Assembly (NCBI GenBank): GCA_964035545.1
Contig: OZ037766.1
Span: 11,150,722 to 11,214,721 of the forward strand
Origin: Bugula neritina
Lineage: Eukaryota; Animalia; Bryozoa
Direction of reading: 5' to 3'
Length of the DNA: 64,000 nucleotides
A program made the position numbers and the translations under genes. Under the pieces are notes generated by a model. That model was not told the origin of the DNA. It ran no database searches and saw only the letters and a program-made list of their open reading frames with translations. Positions 6,463 through 59,366 of the stretch are shown here, piece after piece; position 1 is the stretch's first letter, and each line of letters begins with the position of its first letter.

Positions 6463-6872
6463 TGTTGTGATTTTGTGGATTATAAGAATAGACTAGTAGT
6501 CTGCATGCCAGTTATTGTGATAGAAATAAAGAGTCTTGATTAAAATGAATCTATGAGTATTTATTACTTCTGACTGCTTCGAGCTCCAGTACAAGAATGA
6601 ATTGCTTTGGAAAAACTTCGCACTTATATAGGGGGAAATTCCCGCCACTTAATGAGGGACCGAAACTCGTGCGAACGTCGGAGTTCCGCCGACCGACATC
6701 GGAGGAAGACCTGCCCGATCTCGGGCAGGCCCCTCCGATATCGTGTCTTCGGCCTCCGACTTCGCACGAGTCTCGGTTTACATATAATAATAATAAAAAA
6801 AAAGAAACGAGTGCGAGGGAATATAACTCTAAATAAAACAAGGACATGGTATATTTGCGCGAATCTACAACA
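6463..6872 (-). repeat. 3' LTR (410 bp)
   Basis: Identical to 13916-14325 except G6818 versus A14271. On the - strand there is TATATAAG at 6630-6623 and AATAAA at 6565-6560. Confidence 0.97.
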
Positions 6873-7040: not shown

Positions 7041-10000
7041 TCAGTTGCGACGGTCACCTCTGCGGCCCTCGAGCCTGTCCAGGCGGCGGCGAACAGCGTG
7101 GAGGTCATCCTCCAGCCGGCGTACCTGCCGGCGCAGCCGGAGAACCTCAGTCTCATGGGGGCATCGTGCTGGCACTGCTGGGGTAGGGGTGGAACCCGGG
7201 ATCCTAGGGTCCTGGCGCCTCCGTCTCTTGTGGCCGGCTACCTGCTGGGCTCTCTCTCCATTCCCGTCGACCCTAGCCAACACAACCCGGAGAGGTCGGG
7301 TGACAGCTGGCTGGGCCGCAGGTGGTGCCTCGTCGTCAGTAGCATCCTGTGTTGGGCGGCATGCCGGAAATCCCTGGGCGAGTGTCGCCCGTTTATGGGG
7401 GTCGCCGATGTGAGGGAGAATCAAGTCCCGGAATTCGGGAAATGTCGCCTCGTCGACAACAAACACCTGACCCGTGTGGTAGCGGGCTATGCGCTGGTGC
7501 CTCAGCACGTAATCTCTTTGAAAAGAGAATTCGCCACACGGGCAGAAGACGTTGGCATAATGTTGGGGCACGTGCACCCGCAGTCGCCTGGTAGTAGTAA
7601 ACCTTTTACTACACTGGCGGCACTTGCGGTTGCCGGCCTCTCCACAGTCCTGCTCTATCCTAGCACGGGTCTCTGCCGTGGTCCAGTGGAGGCGCTCCGT
7701 CAAGATGTGGGGGAGAGCTAGCTGCTGGTAAGGAGGCTCGTCCTTCAACTGAGGGCCCTCACCGGACGGGGAGCCGTCGGTTGGAGGGGGGGTACCTGCT
7801 TCCGGCTGGGTGGTGAGCGTAGGCTCTGGTGCTGGAACCTCGAGCGGGCTGGTAACAGCCGGGTCGGGAACTGTGGTGGCCGGGGAGTCGATACGACTCG
7901 ACCCGACCTCCTCACATTCCATGGCTTCTGCAATAGAAAACAGAGAGCTTGGTGACCTGGCCGTAGGAGTGCCGAATTTCGGCATCTCCTTGTAAGGCAC
8001 TCTTTGACACATGGGTAGGTCAGGTGATAGCCGAAGAGACACCCGTCCAACCTCCTGGTCTAGCAGGTAGTCGTGGACTGGGGACTCTTCTAAATCGTCC
8101 TGACCTTTGTGATCAAAGAACAGCTCATTTTCCCACTGATAGTCGGGTGAAAATGAGTCTAGAGAGCTACTACACTCCGTGAAGGGAGGTTTTAGTAAGC
8201 TAGAAATACCTGATATCGTAGCGAGCTGGGTTTGTTTAACTGTCACAGGCTCCATATCTGTCAAATTTTTCAAATTGAGTTTAAAATAGCGTGCTGTATC
8301 GTTCAAAGTTGAAGTGCAAATGGCCGAGTTTTGATTTTTAATTTTAAAACTCGTGCGATCGCCGATCACGTGACTGGTCAAGTGGTCAATTAAATTAGAC
8401 AACTCCGGGTGTCGGGCCGCCTCCGAATTTCGGTCTCGATTTTCTTGGGTAGTCAGTGTGTTTATGGTTGATCTGAGGTGACAGTCTGAATTCGAGTCCA
8501 GTTGGGGGTAATGATTCGAAGGGTGAAGTTCAGTCATGCACCCCACGTGATAATCAGCCAAATAACCCGGTGGTTTCTTGTCTCTTTTCCCTCTCCCCAG
8601 AGTGAGGTTGGTAGGGTTGCTTGGTTGATGTGGGGTGTCTGGTGGAGGCGGTATATCGTCTGGGACAGGCGTCGGCGGCAAGGGGAGGTCCTCTGGGGCC
8701 GGTGTTAGCGAGGTGGGTGTCTCTGGTTGGTTGGTCTGGCTGGGTAAATCATGGGTGTGTAGAGCGGGTGGCAGGCTCCGTGGGGGGGCGTCGGAGGTGT
8801 CTTGGACTTCTCTGGGGTCACGAACAATTATTTCCCACTCTCGGGGTTGATTCCTCCTCCCACAGGAGATGGGCTGTCGTGCTGGTTCCAGCAGTGGTGG
8901 TGCCTGTCCCGCGGCTTCCGGGCTTCCGTGGTAAGGTTTCAACCGCTGCTCGTTCTGAACAGATATCTGTCCTGAGCGTTCCACACGATATGTATGGTTT
9001 GGTAAAACCTCTACCACGCAATAGGGCCCGACGAACTTAGGCTGTAATTTAGCCGATTGTCCGCGCCGCCTGCGGTAGCTGACCATCCACACCCAGTCTC
9101 CTTCGCGATACAGAGGCGGTTCCTCGGAATCTTCTGTTCGTACCAGCCACTGTTTCTCTCTCAGTGCGTCATGAGCTTTCTTCATGGTTTCGACTAACTT
9201 TCCCACGTACTCATGTACTGGGAATTCTGGGTTAGGAATGTGGTACGCGAGGTGTTCTGGTACCCTGGTTTCTCGGCCCAACATCATCAGATTCGGTGTT
9301 TCCTGTGTGCTGGAGTGGGGGGTGCTTCGGTAGGCTCGCATAATCTGTGGTAGCATGACGTCCCACTCCTCTTGACTCCTTCCCAACAAGAGGCTCCGGA
9401 GAGCATCACCCAACATCCGGTTGTTTCTCTCTACTACTCCGTTCCCTTGGGGGTGGTACGGAGTAGTCCGGCTTTGATTCACCCCCCATACTTGGCAAAG
9501 GTCCTTCAATAGTTGCGACTGAAATTGTGCCCCTTGGTCAGTGTGAATCTGCTCGGGTAGGCCGAAGTAGCAGAACACGTGCTGGTCCAGGACCCGAGCT
9601 ATCGTGGGTGCTGATGCGTCGGGGATAGCCAGGGCGTCTGCCCACCGCGTGAAATGATCTGTTAAGACCAGAATCCAGGAATTCCCCCTCTCTGTCGTGG
9701 GCATTGGTCCCACAAGGTCCACGGCTACGACCTGCCAGGGTCGGCCGGCGTACAGCCGGCGCCGACCCGTGGTTTCGGTGGGGCGCCCGTGTTTGCTGGC
9801 CTGACAGACTTCACAGTGCCGAATTCTCAGTCGCACATCCCTGGTCATCCCGGGCCAATACCATCGCATCTGCAGGCATCTGATGACCTGACTGGCTCCC
9901 GCATGGGCCTGTTTGTGGGTGTCCCAGATGATTTCCCGACGGAGAGCGCGTGGGCATATGACGCGATCCCTTTCTTGTTGCCGGTTGTCTGCTGCGAGTG

Positions 10001-12944
10001 TCATCGTCAGGAGACCGTCTGAACGAATCTGGAGAGAATTCCAGCGGCGGCAGAAGAACTGAAACTCAGCGTCTCCCTGCCGTTGCTGTTCCTCCGAGGG
10101 TCGTCTGCCTTCTCTCTTGGCTCGGAAGATGTCAGCTACTGATCCAGGGAGTGTTTCTTGCAGTCGACACAGCTCCTTGACGTTCTGGTACAGTGTGGGG
10201 TTAGCACGGAGTGCCTGGACGTCGTCTGAGTGGGTTTCAGGCCGAAGATGGCCGTGCTCCCAACGATAGACGTTGCCGTCCCCCAACTGTGCCTCGACGT
10301 CAAGGCGGGCAGGTCCCCCATCACGTCTCTCGATGTGCAGGCATTGCTTGCAGTTCTCTACCGGTCGGCGACTCATGCCATCAGCGTTCCCGTGTTTCTT
10401 GCCGGCACGGTGCTCTATCCGGTAGGAAAACTCAGCAAGAATCTCTAGCCAACGGGCCACCTGACTCGAGGGCTCTGCACGTTTACTCAACCATATCAGT
10501 GATGCATGGTCTGTTCGCAACCGGAACGTTCTTCCATACAGATATGGCCGAAAGTGCTTGACCGCCTTGACTACTGCTAGGAGTTCCTTCCTAGTGGTGC
10601 AGTAGTTTTTCTCGGCGGCCGCGAGAGTCTTGCTGTAGTAAGCCACGACCACCTCACTTCCACCCTGGACTTGAGACAGAACAGCTCCCACACTGTGGTC
10701 GCTGGCGTCGGTGTCCAGGATGTATTCTTTGGCTGGATCAGGATACGCCAGAATCGGCGCCTCCATTAGCCGTTGTTTGAGGTGGTCGAATGCCTGCTGC
10801 TCCTCCTGTGTCCACTGCCACCGGACTCCCTTGGCGGTTAGCCGATTCAAAGGCTGAGCCACCCCTGCAAACCCGGGTACGTACTGCCTGTAGTACCCTA
10901 CCAGGCCCAGGAATGCCCGCAATTCAGAGAGGTCCCGGGGGACGGCCCACTCCTTCACAGCCTGTACCTTCTCCGGGTCGGTAGCGACCCCGTCACGGCC
11001 AACCACATGGCCCAGGTACGTGACTTCTTGCTGTAGGAGTGCACACTTGGAGGGCTTCAACTTCAGTCCAGCAGCCCGGAGTCGGTCAAAGACCTCCCGC
11101 AGACGACTGACATGAGTCGTAAAGTCTGGGGAGATGACAATGACGTCATCCAGATAGATTAGGAGGGTCTTCCAGTGTAACCCACTGAGGACCTGCTCCA
11201 TGAGTCTTTGGAAAGTTGCCGGGGCGGACGTAAGTCCAAACGGCAGTACTTTCCACTTCCAGAGCCCATCGCGAGTAATGAATGCTGCTTTGTCCTGAGC
11301 ATCAGGACTGAGGGGTACTTGCCAGTACCCGCTAAGCAGGTCCAGAGTACTGAAGTACTTGCTACCCGCGAGGGCATCCAGAGACTCATCTATCCGCGGG
11401 AGGGGGTAAGCGTCCTGGATGGTAACGCTGTTGAGTCTGCGGTAGTCCACACAGAACCTCCAGCTACCATCCTTCTTCTTGACCAGGACTACTGGAGAGC
11501 TCCACGCACCGTGGGCAGGCTCAATCAGATCCCGGTCGAGAAGATCTTGCACCTGCCGGCTCACCTCCTTCTCCTTCTCCGGGCCCAGACGTCGGGTTGG
11601 CTGCCTGATGGGAGTGGTGCCAGCTGCCAGGGGTATCTCGTGGGAGATAACCTTAGTCAGCCCCATATCTTCATCACCATGACTGAAGACATCACTGTAC
11701 TCCGCGAGTAGTTGAGCCAGTGTTTGGCGTTCAGTACTACTCGTACAGTTTCCACACGCTCCACTGTACAAGCCAGCCACATGCTCCGGGACTGCTTCTC
11801 GGTGGTTGTGAGGGGGGTTTCCCTGGGTGTCGGTCACTGTTTCCAGTGCCGGACCCACATCCGCCTCATGGATGGAGTGGTACTTCCCCACCAGTGCACC
11901 AGCCGATAATCGGACCGATTCCGCAAAGGGGTTGATGCATTGCACGAGGAGCTCTCTTCGACAGTCCAGCCGATTTAGGCTGTTTGCCAGTTGAATTGCT
12001 CCGTGCGTTCCCTCCACCACCCCCAGTGCGGCGATCTCCTTGCAGTTGACCCTGCATCGGAGAGTAGCCTGGGATCTCCCTGGAATCGTGCAGTCCTGCA
12101 CTACCTGGACTCCGCCCACCAAGGGCCTACCAAACTTGTCCACACAGGCAAGTTCCTTCCCAGCCATCACCACCGCCGACTTCTGGAAATCCATGTGACA
12201 CTGGTGTTTTTCCAGAAAGGGCATTCCCAGAATGGCGTCTTCCTTCAGGTGGCTGACAATGAACGTCTCGTGAATTACTTGATCACGGACTCGTCCAGGT
12301 AGTGTGATAATGCCGTAGAAGGGGATACACGATCCGTCCGCCAACGTACCGTGTGCCCCTTCGTACGGCTCGAGGCTCGCCCGCTCTCGGGCACCAAGGG
12401 TGCCGAAGAGACGCCGACTTAGCAGGTTTGTAGTGCACCCTGTGTCCAGCAGGAAGGTGGCAGCTTTACCCGAAATTTTTCCGGGCAGGAAGTAGCTGCT
12501 TCCATACGGCTGGGTGCTCCTGGGTCGGTCAGTCTCTGGGGGGGACACCTCTTGGGTCCTTACAGCGGGCCTCCTCTTCGTCTTACAGACAACGGGGGTT
12601 TTCTGAGGCTGGGAGGGTAGCTTGGGATACTCTTGCGAGTAAGCTGATTCTTCCTCCACAGCCTCTTCGGGCAACCCCGCGAACCGGTTTTGGAGTGGCC
12701 AGGCCGGAGGATCGGGTAAACCTTGCGGTCTCCGAGATCTCCGAGGTGCCTGCCATCCTGCATCTGGGAGTCCCATCCGGGTCGTAGGTGGCTGGGTTGG
12801 AGAGTCGGGCAGACCTTGGGGTCTCCGACGTCCCCACGCAGCCTCGGCTGGCCTGGAAGAGGCTCCCTGGGTCATTTCTTCCCGGATGGGGTTGGCTGGT
12901 GGCTCACGGTTGGCGGAGGTTACCGCGAGCCCCGGGTGTTTAAA
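7041..12944 (-). CDS. pol: Pol polyprotein (protease, RT, RNase H, integrase) with a long C-terminal extension; probably entered by -1 frameshift from gag
   Basis: Motifs: LLDTGCT (protease), LPFGL and YLDD (RT), DTDASD...KELLA...TDH (RNase H), H..H..CEVC, VDLVGP/TDQGAQF/NGVVER (DDE integrase), KFVGPY. There are no stops over 1985 codons. The ORF-track start at 12998 is GTG, not a credible initiator. Confidence 0.96.
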   Translation of the reverse strand, partial: FKHPGLAVTSANREPPANPIREEMTQGASSRPAEAAWGRRRPQGLPDSPTQPPTTRMGLPDAGWQAPRRSRRPQGLPDPPAWPLQNRFAGLPEEAVEEESAYSQEYPKLPSQPQKTPVVCKTKRRPAVRTQEVSPPETDRPRSTQPYGSSYFLPGKISGKAATFLLDTGCTTNLLSRRLFGTLGARERASLEPYEGAHGTLADGSCIPFYGIITLPGRVRDQVIHETFIVSHLKEDAILGMPFLEKHQCHMDFQKSAVVMAGKELACVDKFGRPLVGGVQVVQDCTIPGRSQATLRCRVNCKEIAALGVVEGTHGAIQLANSLNRLDCRRELLVQCINPFAESVRLSAGALVGKYHSIHEADVGPALETVTDTQGNPPHNHREAVPEHVAGLYSGACGNCTSSTERQTLAQLLAEYSDVFSHGDEDMGLTKVISHEIPLAAGTTPIRQPTRRLGPEKEKEVSRQVQDLLDRDLIEPAHGAWSSPVVLVKKKDGSWRFCVDYRRLNSVTIQDAYPLPRIDESLDALAGSKYFSTLDLLSGYWQVPLSPDAQDKAAFITRDGLWKWKVLPFGLTSAPATFQRLMEQVLSGLHWKTLLIYLDDVIVISPDFTTHVSRLREVFDRLRAAGLKLKPSKCALLQQEVTYLGHVVGRDGVATDPEKVQAVKEWAVPRDLSELRAFLGLVGYYRQYVPGFAGVAQPLNRLTAKGVRWQWTQEEQQAFDHLKQRLMEAPILAYPDPAKEYILDTDASDHSVGAVLSQVQGGSEVVVAYYSKTLAAAEKNYCTTRKELLAVVKAVKHFRPYLYGRTFRLRTDHASLIWLSKRAEPSSQVARWLEILAEFSYRIEHRAGKKHGNADGMSRRPVENCKQCLHIERRDGGPARLDVEAQLGDGNVYRWEHGHLRPETHSDDVQALRANPTLYQNVKELCRLQETLPGSVADIFRAKREGRRPSEEQQRQGDAEFQFFCRRWNSLQIRSDGLLTMTLAADNRQQERDRVICPRALRREIIWDTHKQAHAGASQVIRCLQMRWYWPGMTRDVRLRIRHCEVCQASKHGRPTETTGRRRLYAGRPWQVVAVDLVGPMPTTERGNSWILVLTDHFTRWADALAIPDASAPTIARVLDQHVFCYFGLPEQIHTDQGAQFQSQLLKDLCQVWGVNQSRTTPYHPQGNGVVERNNRMLGDALRSLLLGRSQEEWDVMLPQIMRAYRSTPHSSTQETPNLMMLGRETRVPEHLAYHIPNPEFPVHEYVGKLVETMKKAHDALREKQWLVRTEDSEEPPLYREGDWVWMVSYRRRRGQSAKLQPKFVGPYCVVEVLPNHTYRVERSGQISVQNEQRLKPYHGSPEAAGQAPPLLEPARQPISCGRRNQPREWEIIVRDPREVQDTSDAPPRSLPPALHTHDLPSQTNQPETPTSLTPAPEDLPLPPTPVPDDIPPPPDTPHQPSNPTNLTLGRGKRDKKPPGYLADYHVGCMTELHPSNHYPQLDSNSDCHLRSTINTLTTQENRDRNSEAARHPELSNLIDHLTSHVIGDRTSFKIKNQNSAICTSTLNDTARYFKLNLKNLTDMEPVTVKQTQLATISGISSLLKPPFTECSSSLDSFSPDYQWENELFFDHKGQDDLEESPVHDYLLDQEVGRVSLRLSPDLPMCQRVPYKEMPKFGTPTARSPSSLFSIAEAMECEEVGSSRIDSPATTVPDPAVTSPLEVPAPEPTLTTQPEAGTPPPTDGSPSGEGPQLKDEPPYQQLALPHILTERLHWTTAETRARIEQDCGEAGNRKCRQCSKRFTTTRRLRVHVPQHYANVFCPCGEFSFQRDYVLRHQRIARYHTGQVFVVDEATFPEFRDLILPHIGDPHKRATLAQGFPACRPTQDATDDEAPPAAQPAVTRPLRVVLARVDGNGERAQQVAGHKRRRRQDPRIPGSTPTPAVPARCPHETEVLRLRRQVRRLEDDLHAVRRRLDRLEGRRGDRRN
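12901..12944 (-). promoter_or_regulatory. Programmed -1 ribosomal frameshift signal (U UUA AAC + 6-nt spacer + 10-bp hairpin)
   Basis: The gag frame reads CCT TTA AAC ACC CGG GGC TCG CGG TAA and the -1 frame is pol (..FKHPGLAV..). Stem GGCUCGCGGU/ACCGUGAGCC lies at 12931-12901. Confidence 0.85.
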
Positions 12945-13843
12945 GGCATCCTTCTTTCGTGAGGGCATTGCCTTCGTACATGTCCCCTGGCACCACACCC
13001 CCAGCAGGTGAGGTGGGTAGTACCGGCTGGTTCACCCCGGGGTCGGGGGTTTCGTTTATCAGCCTGTTCTCTCTGCATCTGTTTCATCTCTGCCTGCAAT
13101 CCCTTTACCATGTCCATCAGCATGGTCATCTGGTCAGGTGACGAAGTAGTAGCAGCCGCCACGGCCTGTGGGTTTGGCTGATCCGGCTTAGCGACTTCGG
13201 GTCGTTCCTCAATCTGACAAGCGGTGAAATCCGCACATTGAGGTCCCTCCACTTGGTAGGAAGCCTTGCCCAGGGCTAAGGCTTCCTCTATAGTGGTGAC
13301 CTTGGCTGCCAAGTAATAACGCTGTAGTCCAGGGTTATTGATTGTGTGGAAGAAGGCTTCATACACAGCACCTCTTTGTGCTGCCGGTGTGTCGTCGCTA
13401 TGGGCTACTGGTACTAGTGCCTCAATAGCGTTCGCATGGTCTTGGAGTGAGGTCTTCCGGTCTCGGCGTATGGTGCGCAATCTGTCCCTGGCGGCGCGGG
13501 CGGTTAGCCCGAAACGCGACCTGAGGGCCTGAAAGATGTGCGCTGTATTGGGTCCCAGAGCATAACTCTTTGCCTGACCTGTCAGACAGGTACGGAGGTG
13601 AAGAAGGCGCACCGGTGCCGGCCATTCGGCGAGGGTGGCTACCTCTTCAAACTCCCTGATGAATTGCTCTATGTCCCCATCGCCTCCGAAAATCGGGGGC
13701 CTCAGGCGATACCTGTCTCCAGGTGCTGCCTGCCCGGCCTTGCTGACCTCCCGGAGGGCTGCGATGAGAGTCTCCATGGTGAGACGGTCCCCTTCTCCTT
13801 CTTCTTCTCCTTCTACCATGACTTCTTCTTCTTCGTCCCCCAT
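12920..13843 (-). CDS. gag: Gag (307 aa) with CCHC zinc knuckle
   Basis: ATG lies about 50 nt after the PBS. Capsid-like segment PPIFGGDGDIEQFIREFE...LRTCLTGQA and nucleocapsid knuckle CWGCGARGHVRRQC. Confidence 0.95.
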   Translation of the reverse strand: MGDEEEEVMVEGEEEGEGDRLTMETLIAALREVSKAGQAAPGDRYRLRPPIFGGDGDIEQFIREFEEVATLAEWPAPVRLLHLRTCLTGQAKSYALGPNTAHIFQALRSRFGLTARAARDRLRTIRRDRKTSLQDHANAIEALVPVAHSDDTPAAQRGAVYEAFFHTINNPGLQRYYLAAKVTTIEEALALGKASYQVEGPQCADFTACQIEERPEVAKPDQPNPQAVAAATTSSPDQMTMLMDMVKGLQAEMKQMQREQADKRNPRPRGEPAGTTHLTCWGCGARGHVRRQCPHERRMPLNTRGSR

Positions 13844-13895: not shown

Positions 13896-13914
13896 AATCC
13901 CACCGCTGCCACCA
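13896..13914 (-). other. Primer binding site complementary to tRNA-Leu
   Basis: The - strand reads TGGTGGCAGCGGTGGGATT 1 nt inside the 5' LTR, complementary to the ...AAUCCCACCGCUGCCACCA 3' end of metazoan tRNA-Leu(AAG/TAG type), recalled from memory. Confidence 0.9.
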
Positions 13915-13915
13915 A

Positions 13916-14325
13916 TGTTGTGATTTTGTGGATTATAAGAATAGACTAGTAGTCTGCATGCCAGTTATTGTGATAGAAATAAAGAGTCTTGATTAAAATG
14001 AATCTATGAGTATTTATTACTTCTGACTGCTTCGAGCTCCAGTACAAGAATGAATTGCTTTGGAAAAACTTCGCACTTATATAGGGGGAAATTCCCGCCA
14101 CTTAATGAGGGACCGAAACTCGTGCGAACGTCGGAGTTCCGCCGACCGACATCGGAGGAAGACCTGCCCGATCTCGGGCAGGCCCCTCCGATATCGTGTC
14201 TTCGGCCTCCGACTTCGCACGAGTCTCGGTTTACATATAATAATAATAAAAAAAAAGAAACGAGTGCGAGAGAATATAACTCTAAATAAAACAAGGACAT
14301 GGTATATTTGCGCGAATCTACAACA
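13916..14325 (-). repeat. 5' LTR (410 bp)
   Basis: Direct repeat of 6463-6872 with one mismatch. Confidence 0.97.
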
Positions 14326-58848: not shown

Positions 58849-58922
<74 letters not shown>

Positions 58923-59366
58923 GTATACGAGAAACATTGTTATTTATTACTTTATTAGGTAAAGTAATTACACTGATATTTCGGGTACCACTGTACCCAT
59001 CTTCAGAGTAGCAATGAATGAAATTCAAAAATTATTATGTTACGTTAGACGTTATGCATGACACAAAGAATAGAGAGTGGCAGTTATTGTAAATTATTGA
59101 AACTTAAAGGAGATAATCTTATTTTATATATTACGCAGGTCAAAAATTATACTGATTTTTTTGCATAAAAAATAAATTAGAGTTGACAAAAAATAGATAT
59201 CCAAATATAACGTAACATAATAATTTTTGAATTTCATTCATTGCTACTCTGAAGATGGGTACAGTGGTACCCGAAATATCAGTGTAATTACTTTACCTAA
59301 TAAAGTAATAAATAACAATGTTTCTCGTATACCTATTTATAATCAAATTGCTAGCTCGTAAAGATA

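Follow-up and report, generated by a model that had tools for sequence, protein, structure and literature searches.

A zinc-finger third ORF fused in frame to Pol in a Ty3/gypsy retrotransposon of Bugula neritina: a conserved start codon, a candidate internal promoter and a predicted optional intron

Accessory regulatory genes of LTR retrotransposons have rarely been characterised, the examples being CERV, the Penv of Tor elements and the sORFs of MDG1. Among retroviruses, foamy viruses have an internal promoter (PMC7828637, in its available part). It is located in env and linked to tas, one of the 3′ accessory genes along with bel-2. This arrangement resembles the unit proposed here in that 3′ accessory genes for a nuclear regulator are preceded by an internal promoter; however, foamy viruses are retroviruses and have no integrase fusion. 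In Oikopleura, as described in the accessible text of PMC4402516, the env RNA of the Tor3b/4b elements starts inside or just after pol (Penv), with no splicing from the LTR, and the env of Tor3a, their sister group, is made by splicing. Like the element analyzed here, Tor3b/4b are of the Ty3/gypsy type and carry a third ORF, the internal promoter being a prediction in our case, but the third ORF of Tor encodes a membrane glycoprotein, whereas ours, joined in frame to Pol, encodes a soluble protein with zinc fingers. On the other hand, Cer1 of C. elegans encodes CERV, an accessory nuclear protein of 517 aa with a cysteine-rich finger that is made by splicing of gag exons to a last exon, in an element without a gag-pol stop (PMC10309623, in the portion available). 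CERV and the ORF3 described below have in common that the C-terminal part, or last exon, lies in the polyprotein frame, whereas the ORF3 element differs from Cer1 in its predicted -1 frameshift, in the conserved ATG of its ORF3 and in a predicted intron inside ORF3.

Two further groups of Ty3/gypsy elements invite comparison. Errantiviruses, too, have a third ORF, placed downstream of pol and before the 3′ LTR (PMC13524379 and PMC4402516, in the parts accessible), and the original prediction drew this parallel for env/ORF3. The parallel fails on the protein itself, which is not env-like: its maximum 19-residue hydropathy is 0.69, with no hydrophobic segment and no env fold, it has a zinc-finger core and it lies in the Pol frame, so the identity with an errantiviral env was rejected. 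Chromoviruses are similar in that their Pol frame ends in a folded module, as far as the available text of PMC13524379 goes, but the module found here, a double C2H2-like finger, follows the integrase tail at a distance of about 280 residues and has its own start codon. A chromovirus was also rejected, since none of the 11 Pfam matches that Pol gives at E up to 1 is to a chromodomain family. No description of the ORF3 family was found in the open literature searched, although repeat libraries may already include such elements, and the accessible sections of PMC13524379, PMC11952523 and PMC6338049 give no account of an ORF3 gene.

The element that carries ORF3 is a young Ty3/gypsy LTR retrotransposon on the minus strand of the window, that is, of the whole 64,000-nt stretch of the Bugula neritina genome that was analyzed. 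Its two LTRs of 410 nt (5′ LTR at 13916-14325, TG...CA, with a TATA box at 14083; 3′ LTR at 6463-6872) show a single mismatch and have a target-site duplication, ATAT, on both outer flanks. The primer-binding site directly 3′ of the 5′ LTR (13897-13914) is presumably that of tRNA-Leu, and no tRNA gene was found within the 64-kb window. The gag ORF (12920-13843) encodes one CCHC knuckle (zf-CCHC E 0.0027, below cut-off), and a slippery heptamer at 12944-12938 followed by a stem-loop at the gag-pol overlap suggests a -1 frameshift (predicted signal at 12897-12944; fold z -2.13, with 4 of 200 shuffles folding equally well). The stop-free Pol frame (7041-13031, 1996 aa) contains, in this order, protease, RT, RNase H, integrase, an SH3-like tail, a linker and ORF3, and the nearest solved structure to its RT is that of Ty3 (E 1e-94). 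The features that place an element in Ty3/gypsy (Metaviridae) are thus present: two LTRs, a primer-binding site, a target-site duplication, the domain order and a Ty3-like RT.

Some additional features of the element and its surroundings can be mentioned. The U3 part of both LTRs contains a long hairpin-like stretch (6657-6779 and 14110-14232), with weak Rfam hairpin matches far under the gathering score. A weak donor-like GTAATA (14022-14013) shares letters with AATAAA, the poly(A) signal in the 5′ LTR, and a short upstream ORF begins near 13958. The rest of the window is occupied by intron-rich animal genes, whose exons (19893-61258) resemble, by eye, what we take to be RRP4/EXOSC2, transformer-2, sphingosine-phosphate lyase, kinesin-13 and TIA-1. 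Moreover, a perfect 134-nt inverted repeat at 58914-59341, with 160 nt between its arms and adjoining TA runs, has the appearance of a miniature DNA transposon.

The letters on which the original prediction was built are all present on the minus strand: an AG at 8259-8258, an ATG at 8255 and a 404-aa frame down to a stop at 7043-7041, which is in frame with the stop-free Pol frame from 13031 to 7041. The start codon of ORF3 (Met1, 8253-8255) has a purine at -3 and G at +4. At E up to 0.001 the relatives of ORF3 comprise 328 representatives, and 23 were found among 7996 scored candidates; no Pfam family lies above cut-off. The Met1 column is reached by 18 of the 32 aligned relatives, four of which were left out (P0172, P0229 and P0014 as misaligned, and P0165, which ends earlier). 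All of the other 14 have Met in this column, and their next residue is always E, D or G, which implies a G at base +4. Half of these relatives (7/14) start at this position by gene call, a procedure that favours ATG, but Met is also found in 7/7 relatives with upstream residues, hence without gene-caller bias. In pairwise alignments, P0172, P0229 and P0014 likewise have a Met in the corresponding position, with G, G and R as the next residues. The ATG of ORF3 is very probably a conserved start, and its maintenance in relatives suggests that ORF3 is likely made as a separate protein too.

The linker between the YLADY motif of the integrase tail and Met1 (8256-8549) stays open for 98 codons, which is reached by chance in 0.4% of 20000 shuffles, and the other two frames contain 9 and 6 stops. 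Stops between YLADY and the ATG were also sought in sister elements, as the original prediction had proposed, and the frame from YLxDY to Met was found open in five of them (P0001, 98 residues; P0006, 104; P0221, 102; P0172, 111; P0229, 72). Among the 17 proteins with the integrase-tail motif (15 of 70 proteins, plus P0001 and P0006), 12 end before the Met, at stops or contig ends that are indistinguishable, and nine of those 12 do so at scattered places, as expected of decayed copies or contig ends. The other three, which have a related type of integrase (P0185, P0189 and P0201), share a common end 78-82 residues past the tail motif, apparently without a fused ORF3. The distant P0142 shows an integrase-tail-like motif 108 residues before the finger and no Met between them, which suggests a pure fusion in some lineages. 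Longer fused proteins were absent among 7984 candidates, which is weak evidence. Taken together, the conserved Met1 and the frame open in five relatives support both a fusion and a free ORF3, and the integrase-ORF3 fusion is probably under selection. The dual expression put forward in the original prediction is therefore supported in its two protein forms, the one with its own conserved ATG and the one fused to the integrase, but not in its route, a spliced RNA through AG 8259-8258.

This route would start with an LTR-driven RNA, spliced from a donor in the leader or gag to AG 8259-8258, with ORF3 starting 2 nt later; combined with the downstream donor described below, it would produce an exon of just 48 nt (8257-8210). 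The AT-rich stretch that accompanies it, placed at ~8500-8200, is real but narrower and shifted: the lowest 200-nt interval of the Pol frame has a GC content of 0.37 (mean 0.57, sd 0.056), the stretch 8550-8351 shows 0.505, the trough at 8350-8256 falls to 0.295, and low GC continues into ORF3 (0.44 at 8255-8100). As an acceptor, AG 8259-8258 has 6 pyrimidines in 15 nt, as many as are found at 191 of 243 YAG sites, and ranks 67 of those 243 by pyrimidines plus T. It lies within the host acceptor range (6 to 12 pyrimidines, n=17), and a matrix trained on 17 host acceptors hand-picked from the window places it 39th or 6th among 537 AGs, depending on the background. It is therefore a possible but unremarkable acceptor. 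Its pairing with the ATG at 8255 is no more than chance, with a YAG ending at most 5 nt upstream at 24 of the 88 ATGs in the element. As deduced from amino acids rather than DNA, an AG across codons -2/-1 is possible in 5/10 relatives with upstream residues, four of which also allow YAG, but it is impossible in the other five, which include the three closest and whose upstream residues are purine-rich.

Possible splice joints were sought in 11 runs of assembled contigs, 10 of which contain only 0.08-0.13 of the words of the window. Six of them (X1, X2, X3, X4, X7 and X11) were aligned to it, with the RNA nature of X1, X3 and X4 being presumed. A splice joint at 8258, 8210/7927 or 8374 appears neither among the nine joints listed nor among the others listed. 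The junction ending at 8257 that had been anticipated is likewise absent from the joints listed, in contigs among which the subfamily of the element itself was not detected: none of the 39 contigs of X1, X3 and X4 in 7751-8950 is at least 99% alike to the window. The sister contigs run unbroken across 8258, 8374 and 7928 (at 7928, X1 record 2 and X4 record 22), which argues mildly against abundant splicing in the sisters. Searches for sister DNA loci gave 0/30 viral-contig and 0/134 metagenome candidates, and 1/18 genome candidates, a weak bacterial match taken as chance; a scan for integrase loci gave 1/58, a 2.2-kb contig ending inside the integrase.

Sister contigs of X1, X3 and X4 match the window at 8299-8415 and carry different letters where they bridge 8215-8298, 66 in place of 84 in X3, and with a joint at 8212-8313 in X1. 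This replacement was judged from contigs joining across, and missing cover at 8231-8270 and 8430-8800 was not counted alone. With 8215-8298 replaced, the 40 nt that would hold the branch point and pyrimidine tract of AG 8259 belong to the replaced part, in contigs that continue unbroken across the site. In favour of this acceptor, the family seems to splice, and Tor3a offers a precedent in an env made by splicing (PMC4402516, in its available text). The conservation expected of the AG/ATG pair, however, was found for the ATG (14/14) and not for the AG, which is not kept in the closest sisters and whose surrounding DNA has been replaced in sister contigs, so that its use as an errantivirus-type acceptor is not supported. 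The first proposed splice site (8258-8259) is probably not the one used, and we regard the production of ORF3 through it as quite unlikely.

What the sister elements do keep, in spite of their divergence, is a DNA island at 8299-8415, predicted to be an internal promoter. The island harbours an E-box, GTCACGTG (8367-8374), that occurs only twice in the 64 kb, its second copy being ~60 nt upstream of what looks like the ATG of a host gene (one case), and the word CGGCCATT (8319-8326), which we take to be YY1-like. One shuffle in 1000 brought two such 8-mers to within 100 nt, the words having been chosen after they were seen. The CGGCCATT word is read as S-A-I in P0001, P0011 and P0038, and as R-P-F in the frameshifted P0165, where it stands in another frame of a protein that ends before the ATG. 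The island also tolerates a change of frame in the contigs, with a net -1 in one of X1 and one of X4. Upstream of ORF3, no ATG occurs in any frame from 8534 to 8256, the fourth longest such gap of the element. A cis-element kept at the DNA level ahead of ORF3 is what a promoter of the Tor3b/4b or foamy type requires, its activity here being a prediction, and the island is somewhat more plausible than not as the internal promoter of ORF3. The same island could alternatively work as an RNA element, allowing internal ribosome entry at ATG 8255 on the full-length RNA. Its conservation, AT-richness and freedom from upstream ATGs would agree with this role, but the region 8430-8253 folds no better than shuffles (z -0.50) and has no Rfam match at E up to 1, and the words in the island look like those of DNA factors, which makes internal ribosome entry highly improbable.

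Splicing inside retrotransposon frames is known (PMC3735527, in the part available), and a second candidate for it lies within ORF3, where an optional in-frame intron (GT...AG, 282 nt or 94 codons) is predicted at 7928-8209. Its donor (8210|8209) and acceptor (7928|7927) both fall after the first base of a codon, and this equal phase, together with the length of 282 nt, means that its removal keeps the frame and would leave 310 aa instead of 404. The acceptor AG at 7929-7928 ranks first of the 243 YAG sites, and first or fourth of 537 AGs on the host-trained matrix. The corresponding column shows the highest upstream pyrimidine potential of 198 alignment columns and allows YA|G in 24/25 rows, though both residues vary (A, S, T, V, L or P before, and E, D, G or A after); 12 other columns pass 75%. 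The element has 10 MAG|GTR sites, among them the donor CAG|GT, at whose column N|GTA is allowed in 14/15 rows; one other column exceeds 60%. As before, the splice signals in relatives are deduced from amino acids, not DNA.

Two relatives that had been excluded from this column test, P0014 and P0229, were found, after the junctions had been predicted, to lack exactly the intron segment. Both run parallel to their sister P0172 as far as the Ser on the donor side, 10 residues past Met1, and resume at the acceptor-side Glu of their sister P0235; P0172 itself has Arg where the donor needs Gly. P0014, on a contig of 12,168 nt, keeps the upstream linker and fits a spliced full-length RNA that has been re-integrated. 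On the other hand, a short repeat is present on either side of the junction in P0014 and P0229, another deletion in P0229 is bounded by repeats, and the two proteins probably share one event. The intron segment also keeps protein motifs. With these observations, the splice pair 8210/7927 seems a better candidate than AG 8259, and we hold with good confidence that the intron is real in the family.

Some of these data would also agree with an ORF3 that is only a C-terminal extension of the integrase, chromodomain-like and perhaps released by the protease, with its Mets as protein motifs and the gap of P0014/P0229 as a deletion between repeats. The open linker under selection, the lack of an internal Met in P0142, the repeat-bounded deletion in P0229 and the motifs kept in the intron segment all point in this direction, but such an extension gives no account of the Met plus G-starting codon in 14/14 relatives, of a DNA island that survives frameshifts, or of a deletion at both independently predicted junctions. 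We consider it very unlikely.

About 5-8 nt behind the acceptor 7928 lies a second conserved Met (Met2, 7920-7922), whose column has Met in 23/27 relatives, Ile in three and Leu in one. This Met bears on another possibility, in which an LTR-driven RNA would be spliced to a different acceptor, either AG 8375-8374 in the island or AG 7929-7928, the latter followed by a start at Met2 (293 aa) or preceded by an in-frame gag exon as in CERV of Cer1. Met2 is conserved, stands in good context behind the best acceptor and is not needed by the internal promoter with its optional intron. Two AG|GT sites in gag (13578 and 13371) are in matching phase, no gag junction being among the joints listed, a CTAAT occurs 23 nt before the YAG at 8375, and exon 5 of cerv lies in the polyprotein frame (PMC10309623, in its accessible portion). 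However, the AG at 8375 ranks 113 or 156 of 537, conservation continues for 75 nt downstream of it in addition to the unbroken sister contigs, and the leader shows no strong donor, with a first GTRAG at 12907. Although unlikely, this splicing is compatible with an internal promoter and an optional intron, and both could coexist.

With regard to the protein, the prediction of the whole ORF3 fold is poor (pLDDT 46.6), and only a core is well folded (7299-7727; pLDDT 92.3, pTM 0.81), which contains two tandem C2H2-like zinc fingers. In this core, H52, C62 and C64 are invariant in 62 rows, and C36, C39, H56 and H77 are kept in at least 90% of them. Its Pfam match to C2H2 is below cut-off, Foldseek gave no match at E 0.001, and the best VIA match is a weak one to Kaiso (Z 3.9, rmsd 2.7, 57 aligned). 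Residue 259 of ORF3 (7481-7479), the likely last ligand of the second finger, is Tyr in the window and Cys in 27/28 matched relatives. A basic cluster KRRRR (residues 343-347) precedes a long C-terminal helix, a likely coiled coil (7065-7160). Acidic activation segments have an acidic composition that is also rich in aromatic residues and leucine; among the 94 residues encoded by the predicted intron, 15 are D/E, 8 are K/R and 21 are W/F/Y/L. We predict that ORF3 acts in the nucleus as a regulator of the DNA or RNA of the element itself, and a role of the fusion form in integration targeting is possible. Similar cores were also seen in other contexts. P0145 (1145 aa) has a related protease joined directly to a distant zinc-finger core, with no RT or integrase match, and perhaps comes from a non-autonomous element. 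In P0025 and P0050 the double-finger core occurs twice and retroelement domains are absent; both are possibly host-domesticated forms.

The most likely pathway, to which we would give as a whole a probability of about one half, combines these elements. The full-length RNA would produce the integrase-ORF3 fusion, whereas a short RNA from the internal promoter in the 8415-8299 island would produce a free ORF3 from ATG 8255. The AT-rich trough would thus be the core promoter and 5′ leader of the short RNA, overlaid on an open frame, with an RNA start predicted near 8330-8260. Either RNA could lose the in-frame intron of 282 nt (8209-7928), which would take out the 94-residue segment, with its many acidic and aromatic or leucine side chains, and shorten the free protein from 404 to 310 aa. 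The free protein, with its two zinc fingers, basic cluster and long helix, would be nuclear and self-associating and would bind the DNA or RNA of the element, its long form activating and its short form damping. The promoter, the RNA start, the use of the splice sites in this copy and the function are the parts of the model that we infer, and they lead to predictions that are exact and inexpensive, namely that the short RNA starts around 8330-8260 and that a junction joins 8210 to 7927.

A more speculative and, for us, doubtful extension is that a single stop-free frame would give rise to up to four zinc-finger products, the long and short fusions and the long and short free regulators, through a host-style internal promoter within Pol and an optional intron by which an activation-like segment is switched in or out, with spliced genomes being re-integrated intron-less, and that ORF3 would belong to a large family of double zinc fingers that animal gypsy elements carry as accessory proteins. 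If the model holds true, a simple retrotransposon would have built a regulatory layer like that of complex retroviruses without breaking its Pol frame.
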